DNA from: Tubiluchus corallicola
Taxonomy: Eukaryota; Animalia; Priapulida
Length of the DNA stretch: 64,000 nucleotides
NCBI GenBank assembly: GCA_030141605.1
Contig: JAQGDQ010000141.1
Location: 372,001 to 436,000, forward strand
Direction of reading: 5' to 3'
The translations under genes and the position numbers were made by a program. The notes below the pieces were generated by a model. The model searched no databases, was not told the origin of the DNA, and saw nothing but the letters and a program-made list of their open reading frames with translations. Shown here in pieces: positions 17,706 through 64,000 of this stretch (the first letter of the stretch is position 1; the number at the start of each line of letters is the position of its first letter).

Positions 17706-18207
17706 CTCACTGTTATAAAACATTATCATTACTAATGTTCATGAAATTAAAATCTGTGCTACACATGACAATGGCAATCTACACAATTTACATAGAATGA
17801 ATTATGCCTCTTCTACTGATTGATGACAATTTGACAACATCAATGATCAATTCATAATTACTTGCTTATAGACTACAATGCATACATTTCACCACATGTG
17901 TATGCACTCATTGTTTTGAAACTCGTCCCATAAACTTGGTAAAACCATGCTACAACATCACAAATTCTTTTCTGGCTCCTGCATGAAAGGGACAAAAAAC
18001 TAGTAATCTAAGGGCTTTCTGAATTCTGCATAAATATATGCAATAATCTAAAGTTGGACATTATCACAGTGCAGATTGATCAGACCTACAATCTAATTTA
18101 TAGGGTAGGTCAGGTTAATTAAATGTATTTTCTTTAGCAAATAAGTTACATGAGTTTATATATCCATGATTATTTACGATTTATTTATTTATTTATTAAA
18201 TATATCC

Positions 18208-18455
18208 AGATGCATTTAGACTAGCAAGTTTTCTGTTTGACAGCAAACTTGCAAGTGAACTGCGTTGCGAGTTACTGTAAGCAAGAAATTGCAAATCCTT
18301 TGAACGTTGCTGCGAGTTACTGCCTAGTGTGAACGCTTCGGCGAGTTACTCTCGACACTTCTTGCAGTGAATAGATCAGTGAGTGTCAGCTTGCGTTTCT
18401 GACGGAGAATTGATGAGTTACTTGGCGAAAAAACTCGCTAGTCTGAAAGCACTTT
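18208..18455. mobile_element. MITE with GCGAGTTAC-type subrepeats; related copies at about 44097-44355 and 46210-46340
   Basis: Inverted termini GCATTTAGACTAGCAAGTTTT / AAAACTCGCTAGTCTGAAAGC; similar sequence at three sites. Confidence 0.65.
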
Positions 18456-19110
18456 CGTGTTACTTGAAACCGTTAATGATAAAAGGAGACAACGTGAGAT
18501 TTACAATACCAATCTTTTCAGGGCCCAAGAACAAACTACACAAAACGTGAAACTAGTAAAAAGCCATGTATGCAAAAATAATCTGCTACAACATAAGTGC
18601 ATCATATTTATTTGTTTCAAGATTTGTAGCATTTGCGTATTTTTCTTAACAAGATTTATCGTTATATCTATGTATGCATTTTACATAGTGAACATATATC
18701 TTATGACCACTGAGGAATTATGGGTAGTGAGTAAAAATATAGGTGCTTTGACAATCTCAAATCTTCGGTATTATAATGTAGACCGTGAGCACAAAAAGTG
18801 AGCAATTTAAGGACATAATTTCTGCAATTAACAAAGTTTGTAGAAATTTTATAACAATTTACGAACCATCTGCACACACAACATACAAACAACAATTTTG
18901 TTTAGACTTTAGTTTTCCTGCACTGTGTATGAACTGTTTACGTCAACAAGTACATAAATCTTGACAAATTTCACAAAAGCTACACTAAAAAAAGTGTAAC
19001 TTTGGAGTTCCACACTTAATTGACACATTCCAAACAACTTGCACACAAACAAAATGGCAACACGTAACACAATCATCTATCTTAAAAATCAGCAAACAAC
19101 TACACACTAT

Positions 19111-20208: not shown

Positions 20209-31625
<11,417 letters not shown>

Positions 31626-36519: not shown

Positions 36520-38744
36520 TTAGCACTGGCCAGAATCGGCAATTATTATCTTCTTGCTGGTTTTGCCACTCTGACTTCCGAAACTCTCCACATTCTTCAC
36601 TACATCCATACCCTCGACGACCTTGCCAAACACAACATGCTTGCCATCCAACCTTGGAAAAGAAAACGACAAAATCTTAAAGAGTCAGTCAGTGACGAAA
36701 AACTATTGAAAATCCATCACTCCGTCAATCTTTCAATAAAAAAACACAAAACTAGATACTATTTTAATATACAAACAGATTTCACAATGATAGCGGAAAC
36801 AGGAATGTTCCAGCGATGCTTAAATGCCTTCCCATTACAGGAAATCAGATATTCAATTACAACCACAACAATCACAGTCAATTGACAAGAGCTAATAATC
36901 TTCTTTTTAGTACTCAATGGTAGTGTTGTTCTGATTAACCGATTTCAGCAAAAGTCAGTCAACCATGACGTATGACTCAGTGCTCAATCATAAAGTTTAA
37001 TGACAAATGATAATTGCTTAATACCATAAGACTAACATTTTGCACACTTCACCAATCATATCAACCATTTAATTGCAATTCAAAAACTATCTTACTAAAA
37101 GGCAAAAAGAACTATCAATTAGAGCCAAAACAAAATAAGAGATAAAACAACAATCACAGACTTAATGTTCTAATTTCATACTGACGCAACCAAATGTTAC
37201 GATCGTTGCTGAAGGTTAATGACTGATCATAGAAATGCGACCAAATGCCAACACTGCTCAATTGCAGATCGTAATTAATGCAGATAGTTGCGGCAAGACG
37301 GAAATCCGGCTCAGATACGATTGAATATAAACATCCTTCCTCAACGATGTAAACAGCAAGAATCAGCACTTGAAATTAAAACCACATACAGCAAGTATGT
37401 AATCCAACGGTCACCTATCCACTCACTGACCAGCTTCAGTTGCTAAGTGCAAACTACGAAGCATTCGGTTATTTCCCTTGCGAAATACAATACCGAAAAA
37501 TTTGCAAAAAATGCAAATTAATAAACATTCAATAGCATGTTAGGAGCTGACCTAGCAAGAACAAGACCTATCAAATTAATAAGAATAACATTAATGCAAA
37601 AAGTCTAAAACTACGTACCATTCAGTTTTCACAGTGCACAGAAAGAACTGAGAGCCATTAGTATTTGGCCCTGCATTAGCCATGGACAAAATTCCTGTAA
37701 CAAATGTGAACATTTTCAACTGATTCACACAAAACACTACAAAGTAGTAAAATAGAAAAAAATTCAAATTAGAATGCAAATACAAAATGAAAAGCGTCGA
37801 AATGTCAGTACTTTGGCTCATAATACCAGCACAAACAACAAAAGTCATTTACCAGGTCCGGTGTGCTTCAGCTTGAAGTTTTCATCAGCAAACTTAGCTC
37901 CATAGATACTCTTTCCACCAGTTCCATTGTGATTGGTGAAGTCACCACCCTGGCACATGAAGTTGGGGATGACACGATGGAAGGTGCTGCCCTTGTAGCC
38001 AAATCCCTTCTCCCCAGTGCAAAGAGCACGAAAATTTTCTGTAGAACAAAAAAAGGAAAGAAGTATTTCACAAACATGTATATTGGATTGTCACAGAGTA
38101 CAGAGTTTGCACTACACATACTTGTAATTATCATACTTTGAAACATTCTAAGACAAATTACCTTTCTTTAACTAGAATACTTACATTGCCATGGGCTGTC
38201 TAGTTAAGATGATTATAATTTATTACCAATTATACTTTATAGTTAAAAGAAATAAAATTGCATTTCAGATGTAGTAAACAAAGTACCTGCAGTTTTTGGA
38301 ACAGTATCAGCAGCCAACTGCAAGAAAAAAATTATATTATGTTAGTACAATTTGCACACAAGAACGTTCATACATGCCAAGCTGCCAGGCACTCAACTTT
38401 CATTTGACCTTGACCGATATTGCATGATGTACATCAGCTGGGATAGCCGGGTTTTTAAATCAAATTGTTACAATACGAAGATACTGCATATAGACAACGA
38501 TAATGTTCCTTACTTTAATTAAAAACCTACACATTAATTAATGACAAAACCAAGCACATAAGCAATTACAAAGAAAAGCTAATATTCCATAAATGACTCT
38601 GATAAACCATTTCAGGTTTTACAAATTTGTAGCTTCAACAATGATGTTCAAATATAAAAAAAGTAATCATAGTACCTCCATTACAATACGACCGACTGGG
38701 CTGCCATCGGCTGTAATGTCAAAGAAGCACCTCGGGTTTGTCAT
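36520..38744 (-). CDS. PPIA: Peptidyl-prolyl cis-trans isomerase, cyclophilin A/F type, 164 aa. Exons 38744-38676, 38317-38287, 38038-37853, 37694-37619, 36652-36520
   Basis: Spliced translation [80 protein letters not shown]...[42 protein letters not shown]...IIIADSGQC*; 495 nt; minus-strand AATAAA about 50 nt after the stop. Confidence 0.96.
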
Positions 38745-38819
38745 GGTGCTCAGCAAACAACGAAAAGTCCTTAAAGAACCAATAACTGCAAAATTTAAAA
38801 GTCTTTTGCACAGGGCGGC

Positions 38820-38855
38820 AAGAGAAAGACGAACATGCCGGTAGACGCTTATATA
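38820..38855 (-). promoter_or_regulatory. Cyclophilin core promoter: TATA box (TATATAA, 38855-38849) and pyrimidine TCT/5'TOP-like initiator (TCTTTCTCTT, 38829-38820)
   Basis: Minus strand reads ACCTATATAAGCGTCTACCGGCATGTTCGTCTTTCTCTTGCC. The TATA-to-C spacing of about 27 nt is canonical. Confidence 0.7.
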
Positions 38856-39067
38856 GGTTACGGACTATTTTTCATGACACTTATTTTTGCGATCAATTAA
38901 TGCAGCGTAGAAATAAGAAAATCTGGGCTGTATTGCTAAATATGACAATAATACCATGTCTTTTTTAGACATTGATTTTCTTATTTTACGTAGTATCTAC
39001 GTTATTGTCGTTTAAAGTAGTTGTTCTTTTATTCAGCGGCGGCTTACATGCGTTAAAGATTCAACGT

Positions 39068-39198
39068 AAGATGGCAACACCGTCAACAGGCCAAGGAAAC
39101 GAAAAACGTGTGATGTAAGCAAAGTACAGTAGTTTTTTAACCTTTCCTTGATGGAAGTAGGAAAGTCGTTACAATCATCCTCTGTATATTATTTTCAG
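39068..39198 (+). other. Probable first exon of GTF2H5 (ending 39114) and an 84-nt 5' leader intron (39115-39198)
   Basis: AAGATGGC (YY1-like motif common near start sites) at 39068, donor GAT|GTAAGC, acceptor ATTTTCAG at 39198. Confidence 0.6.
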
Positions 39199-39248
39199 TT
39201 TGGAATATTCTTTAATAGAGTTAAACAGTGAATCGTTTTTTTTTTAAA

Positions 39249-42200
39249 ATGGTCAATGTAATGAAAGGAATCCTAGTGGAATGGTAACGCTTACTTTTGG
39301 CTTATTTATTGATGGTAGCTTATGTTATGGTTTAATCACGCGATGACTACTGAACTGAATTGAATTTGAATTATTGAACTTAGAGTTATTACTAAAGACA
39401 AAAACGTTCATGGTGGCCATGTAACTCGCGAAGAAGTCTAGAGAAACAGCCAGTTGACTGTAGACTTACAGTACACTATCGTCATTCAAAATCTTGATTG
39501 TATTTACCAAACAATTTGTATTTTTGTCCTATTCTGAAGAAGACGCAGACGATAGATCAAGATACGAAGGCAATACTTCTGAATTGCTTAGAGGTGTTCA
39601 ATGTTTACATAAGTAATATACTGTGGTGACCACGTGGCAGCTGCATATTCCAACAACGGCCAGCCCAAAGTTTCGCACAAATGACAAATGAATCTCTGCT
39701 GATTACTGTTTTCTTTACTTTATAGTACATATATTTGCTTTCTTTTCTAGCTCAATAATATAATCACAAAATTTCATGTTATTTGAAACCTCACAATCAC
39801 TCGAAGACTTTTCAATCTGGAAACTTCACGAACTAGACTATCATTGATTGAATAATTATAACTGACATGATCTTTCGGGTGCAGGACACTTTCAAAGAAG
39901 CCATTGCTCAGACCATATTTATTTCGACAGAATCAAGGTCAAGGTGGAGCCACTGTACAGCCAAACTCAATCATGATTTTTTTTAAATTATTTATTATCA
40001 TCCACAAACATTCTTATATTAGATTAAACAGTGTCAATGTTCTACTTTTGATGGTTAAATGTGCCCGAAAGTCCCAAGTTAGACTTTAGTAGCTTTATTG
40101 GGTTTTATCTGAAAACAAATGATGTAATTAATAAGTAAATTTGGCAAGTTTAATGTAAGATTTTATAACTAATTGCATAACGTGTATCTGAAAAATTGCA
40201 CAACATTGTAACTTACATGATAATATTTTGTAAAAATAAGAAAACTTACATTTGGCATCTCTTAGCCCTCTTGATAGAAAAAAGTATTATTATAGTGCAA
40301 AGTTGCTTAGCATAATGTATAGCAGTACTCAAAGTTTTTTTTCTTATTTTGTTGCAGCGATCCTGCTATGAAGCAGTTCTTGTTGAACTTAGATGAAAAT
40401 AACACTTTCGGAAAAAAATTTGTTCTGCACGATCTAGATGAGACACATATATTTATCATTCCTGAAATACTGGAAATTTTGCAGGTAGGTCCATATTAAA
40501 AGCCAAAAACACGAACTTATGGACTGGGTACTAAATTAAAAGCCAAGCTGGCCATGTGTTAGTGTTAGAAATTCAATGTACAATACACATCGTTACAACG
40601 AAATAGGCAGCTATAGAATTATCAGGTCTGTCTATTCGTCTGCCTGTCTGTCACCACTTTTTCTCGGCAGTGGAGTAAAGTGTGATGCTGGGACTTGGCA
40701 TGCTGGTAGGGTATTGGCCTATTAATTTTTGGATGAATTGGCGCAGTTTCGAATTTTTTACAGTTTTTTGAAGACTCGCGTATAACACCTGTGATAGCTG
40801 GACAACCACAATCAGTAACATGTTCTTATCTGTTTTTTTTCTATTATAGTGTTATTTTAAGTTCAAGTTATAATCCATGTGAATTTGCATTTTTAGTTAT
40901 AATGTTAAAATGTGTTGTTAGTTATAATAAGCTTTGAGTGTTTTTGTTTCCGGTCTAACTTGATATACATTATAATTGTAATACGTTACTCTGTAGTATT
41001 ATTATAACAGCTGTACATAGATTTTACGTAATTTTATGGTGCTAGTTACAAATTGTGCCAGTGCATAAAATACATTTTTGCAGTAGTCGTCATGTATATC
41101 AATCTCATCAGGGCAACTGCACCACTCTACTGAGGGCTCTCTAGTTAGCAGCATTCAGAAATTCGGAACTCAACTCTTATTTCTTACCACTTGCTTTATT
41201 TGATTGCCCCATACAAGCCAACTGGCAACTGCCAAAGATTTTAATGAGGTTATTTAAACAGGTTCTTGGTGTACAGAATTTCAATAATGCTTTAAATAAT
41301 ACTAAGACCATGATGGTAAAGTTTCAGCATTTATTGCACAGTGCACAGGTATATGCAGTCATACAGCAACTAAATTTCGGCAGAGCTCTTCTCTGTGCAC
41401 TGTGCAATAAATGCTGAAACTTTGCCACCATGATCTTAGTATTATTTAAAGCACTATTGAATGTTATTTACCTGAAATAGACCATCAATAGAATTTATTG
41501 GCATAACGTGATTTCATTTAAGGTGCATCAGCTTTTGTAGGTTTCTATAATGGTTTAAGTAGGTGCCCAAGTACCAAGTTATTGCTATAAGCAGTTAGAA
41601 TGGTAGTGCTTTAAAAAGCGCCATCCATCTTATTTGTCTGGTTTTCAAGTACTTTCACAAAATTCAGAGGATCTGTGACAGCCCAAAATTTCGAGACACT
41701 GGGAGATCAAATCACTCAGGAAAGCTATAAATCTCATGTTTACTCAGAGTAAATATACTGTACGCAATATACAATCCCTAATTCCTCCACATTTTAGTTG
41801 TGTATCCTTTTAGAAGTTGTAACCACTAACTATGCATTTAATCAGTTTTTAATAATATTAACGCCTTTTTAACAGATTTTTACAGCAAGTGCTTAATGTT
41901 GTAATAATTATACGATCCTGTCAAGTGTTGAAAGTTCAAAAATTTTAATAATATTAAATAATTTAGGCTGACTGCTGCAATAATGATGCCTTTTATTTTT
42001 TCATGTAACCATTTTATAAAGCACTTGTTTACTCATTGAACTTTTATACAGTATTGATATTAATGATGTGGCCTAGATTAGTAGCTGCTTCATATTTCTA
42101 AACAATTACATCTATCAGTCTCTAAAATTTATATGTATTAGTTCTGGCACGTAATTTGATGGACGACTGCAGACGAACTTGTGTTTGCCTAATCAGTGTA

Positions 42201-43060
42201 TTTCTAGTAAAAATGTTGTTGGATGACGATTTTCCAAGCCCAACCATGTTCTACTTCACTAAATCTTTTCCCAGTGGGGGAGTTTTGATCTTAATAAGAG
42301 TAACCTAATTTTTGTTGCTGTCAGCTGAAAAGACGATTCCTTATCTTCATTGCTGCTTGGCTTATAATTAGTGCTGCTTGGCTGAATTACAGTAATTTGA
42401 GGGTCTGCGCTTATTTTGAATTTTTAAGCCCTGGATTTAAAGCACAAGAAAACACTCTTCACAAATAAAGCTTAAAAATTTGTCTTGAAATTTTATATCA
42501 CTTACGTGTTGTCTTACCACAAACAGAGCTTGTGTTTATAGTAACGCTGTATAAAACTTGTAAATTTATAGCGCAGTCATTTTAGCAATAAATCGTTTGA
42601 AACATGTTTAGATGACATTGCATAAAGTTTGAAAAAAATAATCAGATTTATAGTAGTGCACACTTCACTAACTAAGCAAAAGCTTAATTTATTTTATATT
42701 GTCAATAAGATCAATTGAGTGTTTTTTTGGTGTTCTATTCAAAGGTGCACTGCACACTACAATGGTGATGCAAACCGTTTTACCAGGTGGCGCGAATATT
42801 TTAAATTATTAGGAATTTTCTTTTCTAGTTAAATAAATCTTTCAAGCAGGTAAATGTAATGCTAAATAATATAACTTTATATTTAACATTTTTTGTTGCA
42901 TACTTTAAAAATGCCTTTTCTTCCCCTTTAACACATTTACAAGTATGTTCATAAACGTAACATTGCTTCCATGTTGAACCTGTTTTCTTTTACTCTACAG
43001 GAAAAGATAGACGACTTGATGGATCGTTTACACTTTCCAATGCAGGAGAAGCCACAGTAA
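39249..43060 (+). CDS. GTF2H5: General transcription factor IIH subunit 5 (TFB5/p8/TTDA), 73 aa. Exons 39249-39283, 40358-40484, 43001-43060
   Basis: Spliced translation [73 protein letters not shown], colinear with human p8 ([25 protein letters not shown]...). Absent from the ORF track because the exons are short. Confidence 0.95.
41280..41461. repeat. Long inverted repeat: 69-bp arms (41280-41348, 41393-41461) with a 44-nt loop
   Basis: The arms are reverse complements with 4 substitutions. Confidence 0.9.
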
Positions 43061-43081
43061 AAAACGGTTACAGACTGTATC

Positions 43082-43786
43082 ATGTCACAGCGGATGATGA
43101 CAATTTTTCTCAGACGAAGTCGCCTTCATCGTTTCGACCTAGCCACCACGAGTCACCTTTTAAACAAAATCATGCCCTGTGCAGTTGGCATGACTCAGCT
43201 ATTGGACCATTTACCTTCGCTTGTCATAGACCAGCGGGCTGGAATTCTGGGGTTTACACGACCGCGGTTACCATTTGCGCCATCTGGCAACAAGAAAAAA
43301 GAATATTCTGAGCGGCGCATTCTAGGGTACTCGATGGAGCAGATGTACAATGTGGTCGCCAAAGTCGAACATTACCCCATATTTGTCCCTTGGTGCATAA
43401 ACAGCAAGGTATTTAACAGAAGGACAGGACATTTCAACTGCATGCTTGAAATAGGGTTTCCGCCATTAGTCGAGCGCTATAACTCTGTTGTTACCATAGC
43501 CAAGCCTCACCTTGTGAAATCTGTATGCACAGATGGACTCTTGTTTAATCACTTGGTGACAATATGGCGCTTCAGTCCTGGGCTTCCGGACAATTCGCAA
43601 ACGTGTACGCTGGATTTTTCTGTTTCGTTTGAGTTTAGATCTGCACTGCATTCGCAGCTTTCCACTCTTTTCTTTGACGAGGTGGTACGGCAGATGGTAA
43701 AAGCATTTTTGAAGCGAGCGAAAGTCTTATATGGGGAAGGATCTGTAAAGCATTCTCCTGCCCAGATTACAGTGTACAGGTCATGA
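43082..43786 (+). CDS. COQ10: Coenzyme Q-binding protein COQ10, mitochondrial (START/polyketide cyclase fold), 234 aa, intronless
   Basis: Uninterrupted ORF containing [68 protein letters not shown] and [39 protein letters not shown], typical of COQ10A/B. Arg/Ser/Leu-rich N-terminus resembles a presequence. Confidence 0.95.
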
Positions 43787-46700
43787 CCTTACTTTAATTT
43801 AGGACAATTTGTTGCTTTTTGTTATTAGCTAAGATAAATTTAACTATAATTTGTTAAGCGAGTCATACGTTAATTATACTCATTTTATAGATTTTATACT
43901 CTTAAGTAGTATAAAAATATTTATTGGCTGAGGAATTCTGACACATTTTATAGATTTTTGTACTTTAAATGGTATTAAAATATTAATAGGATGAGGGATA
44001 CTGATGTTGATAGTTAAAATTAAAAGCATTTGCATTACTTGTGATGTAAGTCAGATTAGAGTTTTAAATTTTCTCTTGCAGGTTACATCTGTCTAAAGGT
44101 GCTTTCAAACTAGCATGCTTTCTCTCTGATTGCAGGCTCGCAAGTGTGAGCTCATTTGCAAGTTACTGTCAGCAAGCTTTTGCAATCTCTTACTGTTTAT
44201 TGTGAACATCTCGTCGAGTTAGTCTCAACGCTTGCAGTGAATAGAGAAGTTATTGTCAGCTCGCGCTTACTGTCGGAGAGTAACTCGCAACAAGTTTTGC
44301 TGGTAGTCTGAATGCGCTTGCCAGTTATAAGTGAGAAAACTTGCTAGTCTGAACATGTGTTGTAAGGAATTGTACGCTTTTTGTTTGACAGTCTAGGTTA
44401 ATTTTTGCAAATAAGGTTTGAAATTCTCACACGTGTAGACATCCATAGACTCTATATACGTGACAAGCCACATTATGTAATGATTACAATGAATTACTTT
44501 TGGTAATGATTTGCTATGTGCAATACTGGATTATACTGCTGTGTCATATCACCTGTAAATAATCAAACTTTGTTCTGCGGCATAGCTAGATGCTTTAGAA
44601 TGCCCAGCTTGTTCACCGCATCTTAAATTCAAGGTGCAGTTGTTGGACAGCATGGAATTACTTTGTCATGTTGCCAGTTTGAAGGACTGTGTTGGTTTTA
44701 GTATTAATTTGTTTTGCTCATTTTGATTATTTATTGTTATCAGAGCTTAGACTTTGTTAATAATTGTTACCTTGGCAACATGATCGCATTTTTTCTAGCA
44801 ATAAAGAAAAATATGTCCCAAATTTCTTAAAATGTAAGCGATGGAGGTCTTTTGAAATAGAGTTCATGGGCTTTGTTAATAATTGTTACTGGTAAAGAAA
44901 AACACGTCTAAAATTTCAGGTGTTAAAATGTAAGATATTATTGATTAACACGTTTTTAATTGGAGTTAAGTCTGGCGGGAATCCAGGTTTACAGTTCATT
45001 TAGCAATCCTAAGAACATTCGGTGATTTCATTCTGAATGGTGTGGCGATGTACAACTGGCGTGATCTGCTTTGCCATGTGAACGCTATAGGAATAATTTG
45101 CATGTATGTTTTTTTTCCAGTTATTGTTCCATCGTGACCTTACTGATTTTGTTTTGCATTAACTGTTTATTTCTCTCACTGAGAGTCTCTACCTGCATTA
45201 TGTCTTGCACAGTGTTGCAGATTTCTCAGTCGAGTTATGCACAACGTGATGAAATATCAGCCTGAAATATTGCCCGGCTTGATGAGCTACATTATTATGC
45301 ATTATTTTAACTAATGAATGTAATTCTAACATTTTATATAGCATGTTCAATGTGTATATACTTGTTGACAATTTGTTAAACAAAAATTTGTCTACATCCG
45401 GTTTTTGTATCGCACCACTTTAATGATTTACATTGCTCGTGAAATTTACAAACAAAAAGCCATTAAACATGCCAGTTTTGTAAAAAAATATTTTTGCTTA
45501 AAAACAAGCGCATAACAACAGCCGTTTTAACTTGCACAAGAGACCACTACAGCTCGCCTAAAAACCATTACGTCACCAGGGTATACATACAAGCCATTCA
45601 GTAAATCATTAACTTGCTTTAGCTAGAAACTACTATTAATGGTCACAAAAACATTTGCTTCACCAGGGTATATATATATTTATGTATGACAAATTTTCCA
45701 GTAGATTTCTGACATGGTCACTTTACCATTTAACTCGCAAGAAAACCATGGCAGTGAAAAAACATCTCAAACCACTGATAGTGGTCCCCACATATCTGCT
45801 TCACCAGAGTATACAAAGTTATTTAGTAAATCACGAGCCAAAATTTCAACTACTGAGAGCAATATTTCCCGAATATTGTCTCTATGCCGAATACAACAAG
45901 TCTTATCGATAACAATGACAACATTAAGCAATTATTACAAGAGTATACAAGTCATTGGGATCAACATAATAATTATATACACAGATAAATGTCCGATTAT
46001 AAGATACAAAATTTACATTAACATACGAGCAATTGCCAACTGCTATGCATTTTACAATTGAGAATATAATGTGTATCACACACACCTACCTTAAGCAACC
46101 TGCACATACCAGAGTTCTTCCAAAGCAATTACAGTCCAAAGTGATTTAACTTTGGCGCCACACCACATACTACAAAGCAAAATAACTATAGCAACAATCT
46201 GACGGAAAGTTCAGTCTAGCGAGTTTTCTCTGTGACAGCAAGTGTGAATTGCTCTGCAAGTTGCTGTCGGCGAGAAATTGCAAATTGTCTGACACTAATT
46301 GAACACGCAAGTTGGCGAGAAAACTCGCTATCTGAACGCGCCGTAAGTCTCGTATATAACAGCCAGCTTGCTGTACATCTTCCAATAGCTAAAGCACTTA
46401 TTAACTTTTTCCTGCCACAGAAACTCCTGATCACTAGACTCCTCTGGTTCAGTTCCAAGCCCAACCAAAGAGAAGCCAATAGAGAATACGAAATAGATAC
46501 AATAATAAAACAATGTAGTTTAAATTCGGTATGAGATAAGTAACATTTCGCTATTTATCATAATTGCCATACATTGTTATAGCAGACATTGCTACATAAA
46601 TGTTGAGAACAAATTTAATTAATTGAAAATGACACAAAAACAGCAATTAGTGAATAATACAATATCTGGCTAGACAACACAATATATGCAGTATAAAGAC

Positions 46701-51100: not shown

Positions 51101-54100
51101 CAGGTTCTAGTTTGGCCATGACCACTTGAATTGAACAAACCGTGACATTGAATGCAAGAACCTACCTACTGTGCACTGAATTACATTAAAAAAGAAAAAA
51201 GTTTATTTTTAGCCTAACAATAACAAAATAAAATCTAGACAATATCACATCAAAATGGCAAAATAGCCAAATTCTTCAGAGCAGAAAATAGCACGAAATA
51301 TGCACCAATATAGTACAACCGTTAATTTGTGATAACTGCTTTCAAATTACTGTGGATGCAGCAGTCCGTTGAAATGATATCTTAAAAGAACATAACAATT
51401 CACACCGCTCATCATCCATTTCTAAACTGCTTTCGCTCTCTGATAGGTGGCGACACAAGGCCTCTCGGCGGTCCATTTCCAGCTGTAGCTTTCTCTGTAG
51501 CCTGATGTTTTCCTCGCGAATGTGTCGTTCTTCTTGAGCATAGTGTGCCATCTTGTTTGAATCTGAAAAAGTTTTGACAAAATTGTATTGTATTGTATTG
51601 TATTATTATACAACCAGTTTTTTAACAAGTTATGAAAACAATGTCATGTGACGGAAAATAGATCTGCTATTGCGTAACAGAAAAGGACAATAGTACAGGG
51701 GTGTATCAAGACTTTACGATGCCCCAGGCTGAGAGTTTTGTCCTGCCCATCTCTATTGTGGATTTATGGTTGTTATGTACTCAGCAGATTAAATACTTAC
51801 TTGTGGTGTATTAGAAACACTATTAACCTAATTTCTATGTGGTCATTATAAATTACATGTATTTACATAGTGCTTATGTTTAAGCAAGCTGCGCAACTGT
51901 TTGTTGTATAATACCTTGCACCTGTTCGTTATGTGGTACTTATATAAAAGCTGAGCACAGTAACTGCCTGTAGTATGTTATGAAATGCGTCCTTCACATA
52001 AACTTGAAAGCATACACATTTTCCGAGGAGAATAAGAATTTTTTCTAAAATGTGGCGGCCCTCAAACTTTGGCGCCCTAGGCTATAGTCTAGTTAGCCTA
52101 TTGGTTAATACGCCCTTGCTCACTTCTTTTACGGGCAAATCAGCAACAGCCGGAAACGGGTTTTGACGATACAAGTCAAAACAGTGACGAGAAAAGACTA
52201 CCGGGTGAACGAACCTCACTTTAATACCACTTTTGGCACCATGATTGTTTATAACAGAACAGTAGCTCACTATAAAATTGATTAAAGTTTAAGGAAGGAA
52301 GCACAGAGTCGTGCTATTACTAGCTACTCACATTTGGAAATAGATTAGACTTATAAGTACATTAGACTTACAAGAAAAAAATCAGTCATCTTTAAATGGT
52401 TCTTGGTGGCATTATGATTATCAAGGCTGCTGCAAAGTTTTTTCTTGAATTTGTTGCCAACATATTTGCCTGTATTGTTAAATGTTAATTGATTTTGTAA
52501 CAGTGCTGGTGCCTTTAACATATGGTTAATACATTATACGCATGATCGATTTTGCATAAGACTTCAATTACTTGAATTGTCAGTGTGTGAACAAAATAAA
52601 AACCAAGTCTGTGTGTCACTTGATAATTTTAAAAAAGAAACAGTAGTACGAAGAACAATGAATAGTCCACAATCAAACAATCACAAACACCTTCGCTCTT
52701 CCAAGATGCTAAATGATAAACAATAAATGGTGTGTATCATTGTAAACTCACGTTCAGCCTGTGTGTTCTCCAGCAACTTTCTTAGCCGTAAAATTTCACT
52801 CTTTAAGTGTGTAATGTGGGAAGCAAGGTTTCCAGCAGTATCATCACCCAATATATCCATGGGTGATGGAGGGGTTGATACGGGTTGATCTAGCTTTTCT
52901 TGTAACATTCTGAAAAAAAGTTAACAATGCACTACTGTTATTTCTCAATGACTTCAAGAAGGAGCTAATTAGAGATAATTTCCAAATCAATTTAGTTTGA
53001 TTTTTCAGAAGTAATAACAGGTACGACCGGGTGTGCTATGTTATGTGCAGAACTTGGAGAATAACTCATATCTTTGGCAACCCAGTTAAGAGAAAGTAAA
53101 ATTATGCCAGTAAAAATACGAAGCAGTTTAGCAAATGCTACCTGAAAGACACACAATGGAAAGTACAGAGGAAAAAGAAGGACGGTGATTCCCGTGAATT
53201 ACACGATTACCAAAATCCCAACACATGTCAATCGTACAGTCAGTGTTGCAGTTAAAAAGTAGGAATTGAAAAGTGAAAATAGAATTATAGAAATTAAACA
53301 GAAACTGCTACGAGATGACTGCATGATAAACTGACACTTTCATGTGCTTGTAATCAATAGGCCTATAAAGATATATTAATATTATTTTTCTAATGATCAA
53401 CTAATGACGACCTGTTTTATGTAAAGCCAAGCCACCAAAAACTAAATTCTGCAAACGAACAATATATAAAGGCAGTGTTTCTTAGGACTCTTATAGTCGT
53501 ACACTGCCCTCACACATTTTCTTCTATAAAAATAGTTTCATTAATGGCTACTTTGTATTCTATTGCATGTTTTGAAATAAATACGTTTTATATCTCAATT
53601 CTTATTGTAATCAATGAATTTTGGTTGAAAGCTACAACTTGGACTAAGTAACATACACTATTGACTCGTCGAATATTAGCTTTTGCGTATGTCTGGAATG
53701 GTGTTCGAGTATAAAAGAAACATATCATGTCATTGTCTACACCAACAATAAATACACCAATAGATGCTCTTTTATTTATAAGCTTTTGTTTACACAATCT
53801 TTAACACATTGCATGTCGCTGGTTACATTACTGCTTAAAAGAGTGAAAACAGTGTTGCCTAGTGGCAGCTCGTGTATAGGTACTGTGGAGCAGCAGCACC
53901 TCCAATATTATATTCACTCAATATTATAGATAATATTCACTTAGTAAGTCTTTTTCTTTAGTTCTTTTTTATACTTGTATGGTCCAGAGCGCGTGGGCGT
54001 AGCAATGTTTGCTTCATAACCCAACACAGTGTGCTCAAGCAACATGGCGTTTGACAGTTGTGCACATGTGCACATGTCTGAGATAATACGCTGCACTTTA

Positions 54101-57100
54101 GGTAGAAAGAGCACTGTCGCTAATGCAGTGTGTGTTGTAAGTTGTTCCATATTTAAAAGCCGTGTATCGACATATTTTTGAACTGCGAACAATTTAGGCT
54201 ATTCTTAAACAAACAATATTTTTTGTTAAGTTTATGTATCAAATTCCATACGTTTGTTTGTTTAAAATTACAATTACAAATTGCAACATTAAAATTACAT
54301 AATGTTTGTTTTGTTTTACACAATATTAAAACAATAACTAAAATTTTTTTGAAGCAGCACCCCCAGTAATTTTAGCTACAAACTGCCACTGGTGTTGCCA
54401 CGACGAGTTATTCCTGAATGTCTTAAGCTCACAATATAGCACAACAGCAAAAGGAGTTAAGTGATATTAACTGTCTAGGTGTTCAGTGATTTGATACAAA
54501 CAGCATGGTATGAAACAAATTAGCATTTTGTGCTCGTACCATATGTGCTTGAAAATTGTAGTGAATATTCTGGTTACTACTTCACTTTTCATACTTAATC
54601 CTTAAAACACAATAAAAATTAGAACGTCCAAATGCTTCATTCATTTTGATGACAAAACTACCTTTTTATTTTTAAGCTGCATGTCCGTTCTATAGGTTTT
54701 ACATGTCAAATGTAGACCTACATTAACTCAAATATAGATTTACGTAATTCAAATGTGTTAACAATGGTCTTCAACAAATCTTAAGCGTTTTTTGGTATGT
54801 CAAATGTAGACACATGTCAAGTGAAATGTGACATTGGTATCTCAAATGTGGATAGGTGTTAAAGCTTGAGGATGTTAAATTTAATCTTCTTTAATTTCAA
54901 TGTAATAATTGCTCTTAAGACTGTGAAAATAATAACTTTGTAAGCAAATAATGACAAATAAAATGTAGAATTGGTGTATTAATAATTGTACAGTTGTTAA
55001 CTTATTCATGTACAACACTTTTAGGTGTTCTTGTCAAATAAACATTTTCTTTACATTTGAAAAATGTATTAACGTACAATCAAATAGTTGCAAATTAATT
55101 ACATATAATAAAAATTGATGCTGCCGATAGCACCATGACCATAAAATATAATTTTAATTAGGTTTTTCTTTTTGTAATTTGCACTTAAATGAGTTAATTG
55201 CAGATTTATTCAAAGTACCGCATCTGTATTTGACTTACCCAAGTCATATTTGAGTTAACAAAACACATTCGAAATTGCTATGTCTACATTTGACTTACCT
55301 AAGTCACTTTTGAGTTAGCAAAATACATGTGAAATTCTTATATCCACATTCGACTTACCTATGTCACATTTAAACTTTCCTGTGTCTACATATGACGTGT
55401 AAAACCTATACATACTAACTAATAACAATGTACATTAAATATTTCATGAAAAACATTATTAACAGTATAGCCTTTTGAAATAAAATAAACACTTAAGCTT
55501 TTATCACCTTTTCTCGGCCTCTAGTTTATCCATTCGTTTCCACAAGCGATTAACCAATGCTTCTTGTTCCTGTTCCAGGGTATTTTCCAATTCTATCTTT
55601 TCCCGTCGTAACTTGAAAATGCAAAATTTACAATTTAGTTCCTCGAAATTTCAACATTTATTTTAAAGTTCAAAATACCTCAATAATTTAAATTGTAAAG
55701 AAATATTTTAACAGCGATGAGCATTAAATAATAAACCTTACTGTTTATATAAAAGAACAGTTAGTATTAAGATGAATTTCTTGCAGAAAGAGGTGATGCT
55801 GAAAAACTGTGCATACATCAGGACTTGAAGGCAAGACCAGTGGATTGCTGCTATTCGCTCTAACCATCTGAACTATGAACCAGTGGCGGCTCGTGTATCG
55901 GTACTGTGGAACTGCTGCACCCCCTATTTTCACTCAATATTATCGATAATATTCGACATAATAAGCCTTTTTTCTTTAGTTCTTTCTTTATATTTGTACT
56001 GAACCAAAGCACGTGAGGGTAGTACTGTTTGCTTCACAGCCCAGCACACTGGTGTGTTTGGCTGTTGTACACATGCGGCCATGCGCACATGTCTGTGATA
56101 ACATGCTATACCCTGCACTGCTAGTGTCTGCTGCTAGGTAGAGAAAGTACCGTCGCTCACACAGTTTGTCGTGAGTTTTGCTTAAAAACCATGTACGGGC
56201 ATATTCGTGAACTGCAGCAATTTAGGATATTCAAAAGCAAAAAAAATTTCGTTTAGGATTTTATCGAGTTTACGTATAAATTTTTGCATGTTTGTTTGTC
56301 TAAATTACAAATTACAACATTAAAATTACATAATGTTAGTTTTGTTTTACACAGCATTAGAACAATGGCTAGAAATTTTCAGAAGCACAACCACTACTAA
56401 TTTTAATTACGAGCCGCCACTGCTGTGAACCCACGTGGAGAAAAAAGGCATAAATTATCATTCCTACAGCAGACACAATCAAACAGCAGTACCTACTAAA
56501 AAAGAACTAAAGAACAGTTAGCCGTATGACAAATTTATTATAGAATGACGTGATGCTGAAAAGATGATTCAAATGGGCACATGGCTCAGACGGTTAGAGC
56601 AAGTGGGCACAGCCTACTGGTCTCGGGTTCAATTCCAGGATTAGTCACAATTTCTCAACTACACCTCTTCGTGCGACCAATTGTTCTTTGATACAAATCA
56701 TAAAGTTTATTAATTCTAGGCAATATTTGAGCAAGTTAACTGCAAGATTATTTTTTTAAATGTTAAAACATCTTTACAAGAAGCAATAAAAAACTCAGGG
56801 CCAAAAATTGCAAGTTACCGCAAAAACTGCAAATTGCTGGTAACTAATTATCTAGCAAAAACCTAAATAAAAAAATTTAAATTTTTCGCCGAGTCGCACA
56901 CAGGAAACAAGGCACATAATATAATCACACTAATAGTACAGACCTGTTCTAAATTGCTCTGTTTAGAAAGAATGTCCGTTTCAAGTTTTTCGATCTTCCT
57001 CATTAGTTTGTTGACTTGAAACTCTTGCTCCCTTTCCAGAGTTTCTTCTAACTCCACTTTTTCCTGACGTAACTGAACAAAAGAGACAAGACTTATACGG

Positions 57101-60100
57101 GTGGTATAGCTTAACGGTATGTGCTTGCTTCCCGCCCAGAAGATTGCGGATTCAACTCCCAACTGAGCCATACCAAAGATTTAAAAAATGGTTCACTGAA
57201 GTAACATGGGGGTAATAATGATAAGAAGTCCGCGACTATGTACTAAACGAATTTATTATTGTTATCATTAATAGCCTAGAGTGGAACATTTAACAATCTT
57301 GCCAGACACTTTTTCTATCAAGTTACGTAAATCATTGTGATCCTCAGCAATGGGAGTAATGCATTACAAATGAATTATTATTTTGTAAATCTATTTTCAA
57401 TTCCACACTTAAAATCGTGGAACTGTAACTGTAAGTTTGTAATAAGTTACAGTTTTCAGAAGTTAACTTGTAAATGTAACTAGCTCTTTTTTGTTGTAAC
57501 TTGTAATAGAAATAACAGTTACTTTTACATTTGTCTAGAATGCACACAAGTGCACATAGAAACTCAAATTCTGATGTTAAAATGTAATTAGATCAAATCA
57601 TATAACTAATAAATATGCCTCCTGTGCAAGAATACGTGTTCTCGTAAAGTTATTTACCTGATTTAGTTTCCTGGAAAGATCATTTGTCAAAAATTCTTCT
57701 TCCTGTTCATAATTCATTGCCAGGGTTTCCTTCTCTTTCTTCAGTGCCTCTATTTTCTTAAGTAGTGTGTTACTAATATACTCTTCCTCCTGTTCTGCTT
57801 TAGCTTGCTGAAAAATAAAATCACACATGTAATAAAAACCATAAGCTAGCTACGTCTAAAAATTTAAATTCGAAGCTTACTGTTGTTTCATCGTGCGTCT
57901 TCATCACAAATGTGGTAAGCCAGAAATTAACTGAGTGGTACATCGGCGCCCTATTTTCTGTGTAATGTGGTTTTAAGATACAGCCATTATATCCATGTAA
58001 CACATGTAACAGGGTGCGATGCGAATGTGAAATGTTAAATTTTAGATTATTTTCAGCTACAGTTTACATAGAGTCCTGTTTCCTTTTAAAACTCCAACAT
58101 CAGTGGAATACAATTTTTCAATGTTTTTTGTGCTCTATATTTGATTGAAGTTAAGGGTCTCCACATTAAATGCAACATATCTCACTGGATTGTATTACCA
58201 TATTAGCTCCATTGTCAACTGCTTAGCCGCACTTCATTTTTGTGTTAAAATGAAGCTTGCACTAACTAGGCAATAGCTCGCTGGGCTTAACATCTTTGTC
58301 TGCAAAAGGGCAACCTGCCTAAATGTGAATCATTTAATATCTAATCATATGTATTTCTGCATGTGCAAAAAAGAAAGAAAAAAGCTTTTAATTAGCACCA
58401 CTTAAATGCACAGAAAAAGTGCGACTACATTCACTAAAATCATCATCAAGAAGGTGAACAGGCAGTCATGGACTCACAACCACAATTGATTCCAGCTGAT
58501 TGGTCGTAAGCGACAGCTGATTGATGTTGCGTAGTGCAACTAGCGTGGTGAAAAAATGCCCGGCTTTCAAAGTTTACCAGCTCAAAAAAGTTGTAATGTC
58601 GAATGCTTCTGTGCAGCAGACACAGATGTTGCAGACAAAATGTGTTGCTTGTGAGGCGATATTCTGGCAGTGGCCACTCCACTAAGGTCGTTAGTGATTC
58701 AAAGGTACGAATATGAATTCATGTCTTTAAAAAAAGTCTTCCATGGTGTATGCAAAACCTACAAGATACTTCTTCAGTGAAATTGTGAGGGCTTTGTGCT
58801 AATTAATGTTGAAGTCCATCTGCCACTTTTCTGTACATCCTTCTGGATACTGAAATTTTTTGATGGGTAACAAATAATAAAGTCATCTGTAATAATCGAA
58901 TATTTGAAAAGATTTCATCGTAACGATATTTATGAAAGGAAGAAAAAATGCTGGTCCTAAGACAGAGCCTAAGACGCCCTACTTCCTTGCATACTCATGA
59001 GGTCACATGAATAAATACGGAATGCAATTAACTGATAACAGCACTGAGATAGGAATGAAGCAATCCTATAATAACATATTATCACTGAAGCCACTTAAGC
59101 TTGACAAGCAGCAGATGATGAGCTAACCAGTTGAAGACCAAGGAGCACAATGCCCATTTGGCAAACTCTACCTCTGTGTTTGCCCTTTAAGGCAATGGAC
59201 CAGTTCATGGATAGCTTCTATCAGTTGTGTAAAATAAAAAACGAATTGCAAAAAACTGTCGACAAACAAACCTAGAACACAAGCTTGTCCAAACTTAAGC
59301 CCAAGTTAGCACCTCCACTGATTACATTGCCATTTAGATGAAGTTGGTGATAATCAATAGGTAAAACTTTATAAAAGTCTATTTCATTTTCATTGTTGGA
59401 ACCAGGTAAAAATATTAGGCTCGGGAAATAAACAATGCAGGTAATTACTTGGGTACATGGGTAACAGATGTAAACACTACTGTAAACATCAGCAAAAATG
59501 CTTTTAACACTACGAAAGGCAAAGACATTACAAAATTAACTTTAATAAGCCATATGGCATTGTATACACTATAACTTTTTGAGAGGAGGAGGACAAATTA
59601 GGAGCATTGGCCATCTCCAGTGTCACAAAACTTTGAGGTTCACCAGGCAAATCCATGTACTACAGTTATGTGGTGAATTGCTTAGCAGCCCACACTTAAA
59701 AGAAACAATAGTATTAGTAGGCAATGAAATGGATTACCCACCTGTATACTTCATTAAGAAACCACGCAAAATAAAAAAAAACATACCTTAACAAAAAGTT
59801 ATAATTGTCTAAAAAGAAGGCCTACAGAAAAGATTAGCTCTCAAAAACCAAATTTAACAAAGCTCTTCCTGTTCAGAATGAATAATATTTTATTTTATGA
59901 AATGTATAATCAATATTTAATTTGAAGTTTTTTTAAAGTTTTTGTCTGAAGTTTTAATTATTATCACATTCAGTACAATATAGTGACATGTAACTATTTA
60001 AATTATTTATATTTGATATTTTAATATCACGGAAGCGTTATATGAGCTGGACAACCTGCTACACTGTATGGATATCGGACTAGTGCTACCAACAGACAAT

Positions 60101-60452
60101 TTATGAAACGTGTGGTATTGCACAAAACCTCTAGATTTATAATGCCCATAGACTAACACTAATTCATGTCCACTGAATAAATACTTAAAATTTAAAAAAA
60201 CTAACTTGAATTTTCTAATATAAATATTGTCAAACGTTAACATACGATTGTCACACTAGCTTTGCGCAATGCTCGATTTTCCTCCATTAGAGACTTGCAT
60301 CTCAATTTGTATGTTTCAAGTTCCATTTTCAAAACTCTCTTCTCCTGCTCAAGGGATTCAATACGTTTAAATAATTGTTCTTTAGAAGCAGGAGACGGCA
60401 TTTTTAAGCCATCTATTGAACTAGAATCACTTTCGCTCGCCGAGTCAGCCAT
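48130..60452 (-). CDS. CCDC6: Coiled-coil domain-containing protein 6, about 411 aa. Exons 60452-60246, 57807-57658, 57072-56944, 55611-55508, 52909-52752, 51562-51406, 50659-50553, 49168-49023, 48207-48130
   Basis: MADSASESD start, then [122 protein letters not shown] and [14 protein letters not shown] introns with consistent phases; 1236 nt. Confidence 0.94.
51696..52118. mobile_element. hAT-type MITE, family B copy 2
   Basis: Termini CAGGGGTGTATCAA / TTAATACGCCCTTG; colinear with the reverse complement of 29795-30216; no clear TSD. Confidence 0.8.
53860..54391. mobile_element. hAT-type MITE, family A copy 3
   Basis: TIRs TAGTGGCAGCTCGT / ACAAACTGCCACTG; perfect 8-bp TSD GTGTTGCC. Confidence 0.85.
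54691..55410. mobile_element. MITE with ~27-bp TIRs and TCAAATGTAGAC subterminal repeats
   Basis: TATAGGTTTTACATGTCAAATGTAGAC / GTCTACATATGACGTGTAAAACCTATA. Confidence 0.75.
55881..56422. mobile_element. hAT-type MITE, family A copy 4
   Basis: Perfect 14-bp TIRs CAGTGGCGGCTCGT / ACGAGCCGCCACTG; TSD CTATGAAC / CTGTGAAC. Confidence 0.88.
56575..56646 (+). mobile_element. tRNA-derived SINE head (degenerate)
   Basis: A box TGGCTCAGACGG and B box GGTTCAATTCC at tRNA spacing; no valid cloverleaf. Confidence 0.55.
57098..57272 (+). mobile_element. tRNA-derived SINE with a central-domain fragment and ATT-rich tail
   Basis: A box TAGCTTAACGG and B-box-like GATTCAACTCC, then CATACCAAAGATTTAAAAAATGGT (resembles the Meta/MESC SINE core as I recall it), then an ATTATTGTTATCATT tail. 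Confidence 0.6.
58450..59230 (-). mobile_element. Highly degenerate LINE reverse transcriptase remnant
   Basis: Minus-strand fragments [18 protein letters not shown]-(F)TDD (FADD-like) and KWQMDFNI, with stops and frameshifts. Boundaries are approximate. Confidence 0.65.
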
Positions 60453-62819: not shown

Positions 62820-64000
62820 CCCTGTTCATCTCAAAGGTTTTATGTTCAACTGCAATGGCTGTGTTAATAGACTTAGTGATTTCTTCAATTTCATTAATAA
62901 TTATAAACATGAATTTTTATGCTTATGTGAAACCCAGTTTTCTGAAGATAGATGATAGTGTAATTTGTCCTCAGCATTACTCAATTTTTAGTGCTAATCT
63001 CTGTGTCAGTCACAGCCGAAACTGTTGCTGTTGAACTCAAAACTTCTTCACAAGATAGTCTTAGTGTTGCTTGCATATATAGATCTTGCAATAATAACTG
63101 TACTCATACATTTGGTTATTTTGAAATCAATATACTTGAAGAAATTAAATATGCTATTTCTATCTACTATCAAAATGATGTTATCATTTGCGATGATTTT
63201 AATTTTCCAAAATTAGTGTGGCCTGACCCTGTTCCTCTTAATGATTTTGAGTGTATGTTTATTAATTCTTTACATGATAACCTGCTTGCTCAGTTATTTC
63301 ATTTTCCTACTTGCAAAAACAGTTGCCTAGAATTAGTCTTTACTAACTGTCTTGAATGCATTACGAATTGTTCTCCTTGGCATGGATTTTCAACTATTGA
63401 TCATGACACTAGCATTTGTTTTGATATTGAGTACAAATACCAAAAACTTGTAACTAAACCCTGGCGTGACTTTAATCGTTCTAAATTAATTTTGTTATTA
63501 GTTTTTTTTTTGAAAATATTGACTGGAAAGCTCACTTTCACAATTCTGACATTATTACTTGTTGGAATTACTTTTTGTCTGCATATAGTGAAGCAGTTAA
63601 CCAATTTGTACCCTTAAGAGGAACGTCTGCTTAACAGCGTAAGCTTATATCTTTCCCTTGGCTAAATAATCCCATTGTTACTAAAGCAAGAACTCGCAAA
63701 TGCAAATTATAGTTAAAATGGAACTATTCTAATCTTAACAAGGTTCATGCTGAATATACTCCTGACAGGAATTGAAATCAGCTTTATGTTCTGCTCGCTT
63801 GCAATATGAGGAACGTCTTGCATATTGACTAAGCAAGAGTTTTACTGTTATAGTAAGCATTTCCTTAAACCTCCTAATTATATTACTATTATTAATGATC
63901 ATCAACATGTTATTTCAGATCCTATCACAGTTGCTAATACTATTAATGATTCTTTTGCTTTTTTCTTCACTAATGAACCTGATGATGGTCCCTTACCAAC
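62820..64000 (+). mobile_element. Degenerate LINE (CR1/L2/Jockey-group) ORF2: APE endonuclease and downstream linker, running off the window
   Basis: FNCNG...LCLCET, IYRS, IICDDFNFPKLVW (GDFN motif), PTCKNSCLELVFTN (PTR..LDL), DH, later PWLNN and IANTINDSF..FF; frameshifts and stops. Confidence 0.85.

Follow-up and report, generated by a model that had tools for sequence, protein, structure and literature searches.

The bicistronic transcript of Drosophila p8 was reportedly described by Herrera-Cruz in 2012. In this system, p8 (Tfb5, CG31917) is the short upstream cistron, and the downstream partner is Swc6/p18Hamlet (ZNHIT1), a nuclear SWR1 subunit reported to interact with p8. PMC7013941 and PMC2276209 place TFB5 as the first cistron in Drosophila as well as in "all arthropods", which bears out what an earlier note on this DNA had stated for Drosophila. 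In green algae, the TFB5 homologue REX1-S is the first cistron and REX1-B the second (PMC7896298). Both proteins serve DNA repair, and in Auxenochlorella they are separated by a 14-nt spacer (PMC11892635). The algal bicistrons are translated by leaky scanning and possess a weak first AUG and an AUG-depleted first ORF. The vertebrate RPP14-HTD2 mRNA encodes a small nuclear subunit followed by a longer, mitochondrial lipid-related ORF in the 3' UTR. According to PMC4705651, PMC5932603 and PMC6825209, this arrangement has been conserved for ~400 million years, and peptides from the second ORF have been found in rat; a 2015 review calls its translation mechanism "not investigated". In Drosophila, 2.5% of the gene models that encode proteins include a polycistronic transcript (PMC4528330). 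PMC4528330 and PMC2276209 describe dicistronic loci at which a small conserved protein comes first and unrelated partners are the rule (82%), with stop-to-start distances of -34 to 319 nt at loci that are polycistronic only.

The locus described here lies in a 64-kb window, the whole stretch of DNA analysed. TFB5 (GTF2H5) is again the short upstream cistron, and it is followed after 21 nt, a distance inside the Drosophila range, by an unrelated ORF encoding COQ10. The layout is that of RPP14-HTD2, though the genes are different and this pair is known from one animal's sequence. The spacer is longer than that of Auxenochlorella, and the two proteins do not share a role as the algal REX1 proteins do. 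Where the arthropod partner is a nuclear protein reported to interact with p8, the partner here is mitochondrial COQ10, predicted from the gene sequence. TFB5 as an upstream cistron is already known from arthropods and green algae; no report was found of COQ10 as its partner. The features of the locus are as follows.

38745-39248, no strand assigned: intergenic region between the head-to-head ATGs of cyclophilin (38744, minus strand) and TFB5; CpG-rich candidate bidirectional promoter
39030-39248 (start approximate), plus strand: predicted non-coding leader exon with a 5'-UTR intron; the donor follows 39065 or 39114, and the acceptor AG is 39197-39198
39249-39283, plus strand: TFB5/GTF2H5 coding exon 1, 35 nt, AUG context AAAATGG, supported by tblastn
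40358-40484, plus strand: TFB5 coding exon 2, carrying the PF06331 match
40485-43000, plus strand: TFB5 intron 2, with an inverted repeat of 69 nt (41280-41461) and, at ~42437-42905, a high-copy repeat; overall CpG o/e 0.51
43001-43060, plus strand: TFB5 coding exon 3 to the TAA; strong acceptor (7.0) and weak internal acceptor at 43044-43045 (2.2)
43061-43081, plus strand: 21-nt spacer without AUG or in-frame stop
43082-43786, plus strand: intronless, intact COQ10 ORF, 234 aa, supported by homologues and PF03364
43787-44030 (end approximate), plus strand: likely common 3' UTR, with ATTAAA at 43974 and 44019 and a 63-nt tandem duplication (43878-44003)

TFB5 is composed of three coding exons encoding 73 aa and ending with the TAA at 43058-43060; the exons 39249-39283, 40358-40484 and 43001-43060 are the sole fitting GT-AG combination among those tried. 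Exon 2 alone matches Pfam Tfb5 (PF06331; E 3e-13, 49.9 bits against a cut-off of 23.5), and the protein is 53-73% identical to full-length relatives across ~70 aa. The spacer reads AAA ACG GTT ACA GAC TGT ATC, and the ATG at 43082 opens 234 codons in a single uninterrupted frame of 705 nt. This ORF carries the START-fold Polyketide_cyc domain (PF03364; E 3e-22), and its best homologues are all COQ10. Its first 40 aa contain 6 R/K and 1 D/E, a basic, acid-poor composition fitting a predicted mitochondrial presequence. The gene anatomy given in the earlier note (exon start, stop, ATG and spacer length) was thus confirmed by the splicing check and Pfam. The shared frame of the two ORFs, which the same note had stressed, is also correct, but it carries no weight and was rejected as a signal, as a common frame without an intervening stop is expected by chance at ~0.21. 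A tblastn search with 10 queries brought up neither another last exon for TFB5 nor a further COQ10 exon elsewhere in the window. One contig of run X1 spans 43054-43391 with zero differences; this run is possibly the source of the assembly and does not count as independent support. A 6-bp hairpin is possible at the spacer but is not significant (43058-43110, z -1.2), nor is any other structured RNA at the junction (z -1.2 to +0.6).

The CpG o/e of 38745-39248 is 1.33, with a 300-nt maximum of 1.6 against a window median of 0.62, placing it among the top 500-nt windows. From this composition, the region is likely a promoter common to cyclophilin and the TFB5-COQ10 unit. The predicted leader has GTAAG donors and an acceptor scoring 3.7, in the top 2.4% of AGs. 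The first canonical-type poly(A) signals 3' of COQ10 are the ATTAAA at 43974 and 44019, with AATAAA first at 44800; from 42833 to 43973 neither motif occurs. The view that the spacer has no poly(A) signal therefore stands for the canonical motifs, but a variant AGTAAA at 43056 overlaps the TFB5 stop. This variant is at chance level (17.6% of window 27-mers contain one of 12 variants). The absence of an acceptor from the spacer, also claimed before, was upheld: its only AG (exon start 43074) reaches -9.2, whereas 11 true acceptors of the window, scored leave-one-out, range from 0.3 to 10.6. The further claim that there is no room for a promoter is true of the spacer, but intron 2 offers 2.5 kb. 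Two separate, intact ORFs thus lie together, and no poly(A) or splice signal between them is usable, as expected of a bicistronic mRNA. Because the spacer has neither a canonical poly(A) signal nor a usable acceptor, the full-length TFB5 mRNA very likely carries COQ10, and the earlier proposal that it runs through COQ10 follows well from the sequence signals. In an RNA-like run, X2, a diverged relative is represented by a spliced contig of cyclophilin, but no contig covers TFB5 or COQ10, and the run is uninformative either way. Neighbouring genes lie head-to-head or on opposite strands, each with its own CpG-rich 5' end.

Nine AUGs precede that of COQ10 in the spliced coding sequence and spacer, five in frame and four out of frame, against 4.9 expected from base composition. 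The four out-of-frame AUGs compare with a mean of 3.0 in synonymous shuffles and are not depleted. With the strong context of the first AUG (AAAATGG), these counts disfavour leaky scanning, which had been called unlikely before. Neither the weak first AUG nor the AUG depletion of the leaky-scanning type (algal, stoned/Snapin) is present, and where two Drosophila bicistrons have an AUG-depleted first cistron, TFB5 here retains its out-of-frame AUGs. Internal AUGs per se are compatible with a bicistron, because Met16 (106 of 133 aligned TFB5 relatives) and Met61 (93 of 104) are family-wide; ant TFB5 (P0180) has the same two internal residues. M5 and M68 are dispensable, being present in 4 of 56 and 2 of 80 relatives.

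TURBS motif 1 is UGGGA and is complementary to 18S rRNA. No TGGGA is present in the TFB5 coding sequence, though the 21-nt stop-to-start distance fits. According to PMC10275272, viral re-initiation is most efficient when stop and start lie within ~20-30 nt, and the spacing rules that apply behind long ORFs in cellular mRNAs are unknown. PMC4705651 gives 55 codons as an ORF length predicted to prevent re-initiation, and the 73 codons of TFB5 exceed this limit. The preferred reading, put forward tentatively and at somewhat less than even confidence, is that TFB5 and COQ10 form one transcription unit in which TFB5 is translated from the first AUG and COQ10, at a lower rate, by re-initiation. Transcription would begin at the CpG-rich promoter in common with cyclophilin and stop near 43974-44030. 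Ribosomes terminating at the TFB5 TAA, those from in-frame AUGs 16, 61 and 68 among them, would start again at 43082 or at either of the AUGs that lie 12 and 15 nt beyond it. Best suited to this would be the two short frames of 13 and 6 codons that open at AUGs 61 and 68 and share the TFB5 stop. The pairing is probably opportunistic promoter sharing by two housekeeping genes and not functional coupling. Nothing was found in support of the coupling between TFIIH/nucleotide excision repair and ubiquinone that the earlier note had suggested, and the locus by itself makes no such link to ubiquinone biology.

COQ10 may instead be translated from a shorter isoform, produced by splicing of the predicted leader (donor after 39065) to 43001 or 43046, or from a promoter in intron 2, with COQ10 in the long TFB5 mRNA serving as untranslated 3' sequence. 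When splicing from the leader to 43001 is simulated, the only uORFs left are of 2, 13 and 6 codons, the latter two in weak context; after leader-to-43046 splicing a single 2-codon uORF is left. Both exon-3 AUGs lie upstream of the 43046 acceptor, whose score of 2.2 is inside the range of true window acceptors, but 5% of all 7075 AGs match this score, and the leader exon is itself a prediction. On FlyBase, monocistronic isoforms of the 3' gene usually use an alternative promoter and some use ORF-disrupting splices (PMC4528330). The lack of AUG depletion in TFB5 and the CpG-rich 5' end of COQ10 also agree with a shorter isoform. The 3' end of intron 2, however, is CpG-poor (0.33 in the last 200 nt, against 1.33 at the upstream promoter) and largely high-copy repeat; a 300-nt patch from 40735 reaches 1.18, the 90th-95th percentile of the window. 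Over the first 250 nt of COQ10 the CpG o/e is 0.98, and over the remainder it is 0.75; internal cyclophilin exons have 0.34. The COQ10 level would agree equally with a start site close by and with a recent insertion. On balance, a shorter isoform is a serious competitor as the source of COQ10, though less probable than re-initiation.

COQ10 has no introns, a feature that the earlier note does not mention; the neighbouring cyclophilin keeps four, with a 31-nt microexon. Matches to genomic COQ10 fragments of other animals (P0123, P0128) end after ..PHLVK or ..PYMVK, and P0128 has intron-like residues ahead of YSMEQM. Annelid and fish gene models duplicate roughly the segment after this point. 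Because of these break points and gene models, the COQ10 genes of relatives likely carry introns that are absent from this copy, as expected of a retrogene. COQ10 probably entered the last exon of TFB5 as a processed, RNA-derived copy, or else its introns were lost in situ. Retroposition is a candidate origin only, because no poly(A) remnant (an A-run of at least 6) was found within 1.6 kb past the COQ10 stop and no target-site duplication was detected, the best junction-sequence repeat being 9 nt and 2.7 kb distant; old copies are expected to lose both marks. The intron-rich genome and a downstream gene resembling a processed insert set this locus apart from the Drosophila dicistronic loci. 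Since no exon junction lies 3' of the TFB5 stop, junction-dependent nonsense-mediated decay would spare the mRNA, and the arrangement would thereby be able to persist.

An intronless COQ10 could also be a processed copy with little or no translation, with a working, intron-containing COQ10 elsewhere in the genome. Its difference from intron-bearing relatives, the nine upstream AUGs and the so far undepleted CpG agree with a silent copy. The ORF, however, is intact for 234 codons and has kept 27 of 27 columns invariant across 39 aligned sequences, and the poly(A) tail and target-site duplication typical of a very young copy are missing. A quick tree, built on 43 rows (the window sequence and 42 relatives selected for taxon spread from the 120 listed), gives the window's COQ10 an end branch of 0.84, with the median at 0.66, and does not flag it as long. 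A silent copy is improbable. No starred set in this tree contains the window sequence, and the closest named relative is Priapulus.

Some animal operons have very short stop-to-start spacing. The gap here is similar, and an AG lies 8 nt ahead of the COQ10 AUG, so that spliced-leader trans-splicing at 43001, 43046 or 43074 might release a monocistronic COQ10 mRNA. This is very improbable: the spacer AG, at -9.2, is not a strong unpaired acceptor, the neighbours are arranged head-to-head or on opposite strands with CpG-rich 5' ends of their own, and trans-splicing in priapulids, the group of the closest named relative, is unmentioned in the titles and abstract starts of the literature searched. 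Stop-codon readthrough into a 315-codon fusion would profit from the common frame and stop-free spacer but is scarcely credible, given the chance level of that frame, the poor readthrough context UAA-A, the burial of the predicted presequence and the lack of fusion proteins among the relatives examined (no TFB5 segment in the 120 listed COQ10 relatives, the best 120 of 635; no COQ10 domain in 136 TFB5 proteins, being 134 representatives and 2 longer matches of 92 and 96 aa; no joint families in Atlas clusters). Two Priapulus COQ10 isoforms differ in 14 N-terminal residues, which are unrelated to TFB5.

If confirmed, the bicistronic reading would add a third independent partner behind TFB5. It would also offer a plausible snapshot of the birth of an animal bicistron: a processed gene inserts into the final exon of a very small housekeeping gene, a site at which it can do without a promoter of its own and would set off no junction-dependent decay. 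With its strong start and nine AUGs, the first ORF would make the locus a clean cellular case for testing whether ribosomes re-initiate behind 73 codons. A broader idea, at present distinctly doubtful, is that the TFB5 mRNA is a recurrent landing site whose conserved coding sequence would by itself favour re-initiation past its stop, many AUGs notwithstanding and with no need of the viral TURBS motif, a property that a retroposed COQ10 would have exploited. The partners under this idea are ZNHIT1 (arthropods), REX1-B (green algae), COQ10 at the present locus and perhaps CDC26, from a fused gene model in a copepod. No zf-HIT match to ZNHIT1 was found in 144 of the 252 window open frames of at least 55 aa, a search in which short exons may be missed. 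A metagenome scan with the COQ10 alignment returned at least 80 loci at 31-43% identity, with no close or animal-level relative among the matches listed. Annotation pipelines would likely overlook one of these genes or merge it with the other. In Rfam, the region 38700-46000 gives three weak miRNA-like hits, each of them in the inverted repeat of intron 2 and under the gathering score.

TFB5 (GTF2H5), a small subunit of TFIIH, and COQ10, a mitochondrial coenzyme-Q-binding protein, are encoded by ORFs that are unusually close together, and this closeness is real. The features are as follows.

39249-39283, + strand: first TFB5 coding exon
40358-40484, + strand: second TFB5 coding exon
43001 onward, + strand: last TFB5 coding exon, with its TAA at 43058-43060
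43082 (ATG) to 43786, + strand: COQ10 ORF, 234 aa, in the TFB5 frame and 21 nt after the TFB5 stop
43878-43940 and 43941-44003, + strand: tandem duplication of 63 nt, copies 76% alike, likely 3' UTR

Among the splice combinations tried for TFB5, only this one obeys GT-AG, and the spliced model yields a 73-aa product. Pfam places a Tfb5 match in exon 2 and a Polyketide_cyc match in the 234-aa ORF. The named best homologues of this ORF are animal COQ10 proteins (~55-73% identity), and the Atlas is concordant. The exon structure, stop, spacer, and COQ10 ATG proposed in the earlier note, which was made from sequence alone, are thus borne out, and the anatomy is real. The spacer is in frame and free of stops, as was also claimed, but an open in-frame spacer of 21 nt has a chance expectation of ~0.21, so the shared frame means little.

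By its anatomy, a single mRNA very likely spans both ORFs, because the sole last TFB5 exon within the window begins at 43001 and the first canonical-type poly(A) signals downstream are ATTAAA at 43974 and 44019. The spacer had been described as lacking a poly(A) signal and a splice acceptor, which holds for canonical poly(A) signals and for usable acceptors. No AATAAA or ATTAAA was found across 42833-43973; the variant AGTAAA overlaps the TFB5 stop, but the window is AT-rich and a variant of this kind occurs in 17.6% of its 27-mers. A small acceptor model was built on 11 introns of the window, which themselves score 0.3 to 10.6 when left out one at a time; it gives -9.2 for the spacer AG and 7.0 for the TFB5 exon-3 acceptor. 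An AG within exon 3 (exon start 43046) scores 2.2, in the top 5% of 7075 AGs. Run X2, an RNA-like run from a diverged relative, covers only cyclophilin and repeats, and the matches listed in a COQ10 metagenome scan are all distant (31-43% identity). Both copies of the 63-nt duplication fold into comparable AU-rich hairpins, neither of them significant (z -1.3 and -1.8) or matched in Rfam, and TATAAA at 43910 and ATTAAA at 43974 lie near the 3' arms.

TFB5-led bicistrons are already published; the pairing with COQ10 appears to be new. No published TFB5-COQ10 pair was found in largely open-access literature, in agreement with the earlier note, though the FlyBase and algal lists of polycistronic pairs might include one. 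Three papers naming both COQ10 and TFB5 do so once each and appear to be screens or models. According to a review, p8 in Drosophila and all arthropods is encoded together with a SWR1 subunit on one bicistronic mRNA (PMC7013941), and a further paper names TFB5 among conserved uORFs, as that of CG31917 (PMC2276209). In four green algal species, REX1-S, the homologue of TFB5, is described as the shorter of the two ORFs in the REX1-S/REX1-B bicistron (PMC7896298), with a 14-nt spacer reported in Auxenochlorella (PMC11892635). In RPP14-HTD2, the 3' UTR belonging to a 124-aa subunit of RNase P encodes a mitochondrial enzyme; this arrangement has reportedly been kept for ~400 million years, and rat peptides support it (PMC4705651, PMC5932603, PMC6825209). 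In its anatomy the locus resembles these TFB5-led and RPP14-HTD2 bicistrons, and it would probably work as they do. In the copepod Lepeophtheirus salmonis, a gene model (CAB4065409.1) fuses a Tfb5 domain (35-82) to a domain of the APC subunit CDC26 (90-122), and TFB5 may have yet another close or bicistronic neighbour there.

The algal bicistrons and two Drosophila ones are described as having a weak first AUG and AUG depletion (PMC11892635), whereas TFB5 here has a strong first AUG (A at -3, G at +4) and undepleted AUGs. COQ10 is preceded by nine AUGs where 4.9 are expected; four of the nine are out of frame, and 5000 synonymous shuffles average 3.0 such AUGs. Leaky scanning therefore fits poorly, as the earlier note had anticipated. 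Within TFB5, M16 and M61 are family-wide, and relatives seldom have a Met at two other positions, M5 (4/56) and M68 (2/80).

Re-initiation is the favoured but tentative reading, somewhat short of an even chance: ribosomes finishing at the TFB5 TAA would re-initiate at the COQ10 AUG. The distance fits, because viral re-initiation is reported for a stop and start within ~20 nt, fading past ~30 nt (PMC10275272). Five in-frame AUGs share the TFB5 stop, two of them just 13 and 6 codons before it. Against re-initiation, TFB5 has 73 codons, and 55 is given as a length predicted to block it (PMC4705651). The junction also lacks significant RNA structure. UGGGA, motif 1 of the viral TURBS class of termination-reinitiation signals, is absent at TFB5. 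The locus thus falls into neither the leaky-scanning nor the TURBS subtype.

The main rival, unlikely though it is, is that COQ10 is translated from a shorter isoform. A leader exon is predicted, with GTAAG donors after 39065 and 39114 and an acceptor at 39198 (score 3.7). Simulated splicing of the leader to 43001 or 43046 leaves only very short uORFs, and monocistronic isoforms of such loci are reported as common per FlyBase (PMC4528330). Separately, a strong-context AUG upstream of TFB5 (39071-39118, + strand) opens 15 codons. Splicing from the donor after 39114 to exon 40358 would place this AUG in frame with TFB5 (76 aa, alternative N-terminus), and splicing to 39199 would instead yield a uORF of 30 codons that overlaps the start of TFB5.

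The COQ10 ORF has no introns, a point the first reading missed. Two genomic fragments that cluster with other animals' COQ10 span only YSMEQM or MEQM through an LVK/MVK motif and diverge afterwards, and annelid and fish gene models duplicate roughly the segment after it. Because these ends and repeats read as exon boundaries, relatives likely have introns absent here. Cyclophilin, in the same genome, retains even a 31-nt microexon. The simplest account is an RNA-mediated arrival within the final exon of TFB5. Neither a poly(A) remnant nor a target-site duplication was detected around COQ10, so either this event is old or the introns disappeared in situ. Junction-dependent decay requires an exon junction after the stop codon. 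None follows the TFB5 stop, so the long mRNA would be spared.

COQ10 looks maintained: its ORF is intact and shares the 27 columns that are invariant among 39 aligned sequences, its branch in a quick tree is of ordinary length, and its N-terminus is basic and acid-poor. A poorly expressed copy is improbable, although a parent gene may lie elsewhere in the genome. At the 5' end of COQ10, CpG o/e is 0.98 (0.34 in internal cyclophilin exons), which tips slightly towards a start site close by or a recent insertion. Trans-splicing of the unit is very improbable, and readthrough of the TFB5 stop into a fusion still more so; no TFB5-COQ10 fusion protein occurs among the 120 COQ10 relatives examined (of 635 found) or among 136 TFB5 relatives.

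The surroundings contain other genes and repeats.

9399-9759: 26-nt tandem array
17200-17709, 23818-23977, 53861-54395, 55881-56426: dispersed repeat of ~500 nt, 3-4 copies
18442-18798, + strand: weak DUF846 match
21754-24289, - strand: PfkB-family kinase exons
28333-28716: near-perfect 128-nt triplication
36520-38744, - strand: cyclophilin, 164 aa, five coding exons including the microexon (38287-38317)
41280-41461: inverted repeat in TFB5 intron 2, 69-nt arms, 94% complementary
42437-42905: high-copy repeat directly upstream of TFB5 exon 3; in run X1 (possible assembly source reads) its depth is very high and joints are numerous
51345-60452, - strand: multi-exon CCDC6 (DUF2046), best match Priapulus
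62964-63614, + strand: weak endonuclease/RT remnant

Cyclophilin (ATG 38744) is head-to-head with TFB5, and a spliced X2 contig supports three of its joints. The 504 nt separating the two ATGs have a CpG o/e of 1.33 (window median 0.62); TFB5 intron 2 has 0.51 overall, with one 300-nt patch reaching 1.18. The first CCDC6 exon best matches Priapulus caudatus (107 bits vs 92 for the next; 207 hits). The quick tree groups this COQ10 with Priapulus and one other protein (SH-aLRT 83, unstarred). Both results point, as a weak placement, to a probable priapulid-like ecdysozoan. The inverted repeat is likely a MITE and has weak miRNA-family matches below the gathering score. The high-copy repeat contains a CTCF-like motif at 42783.
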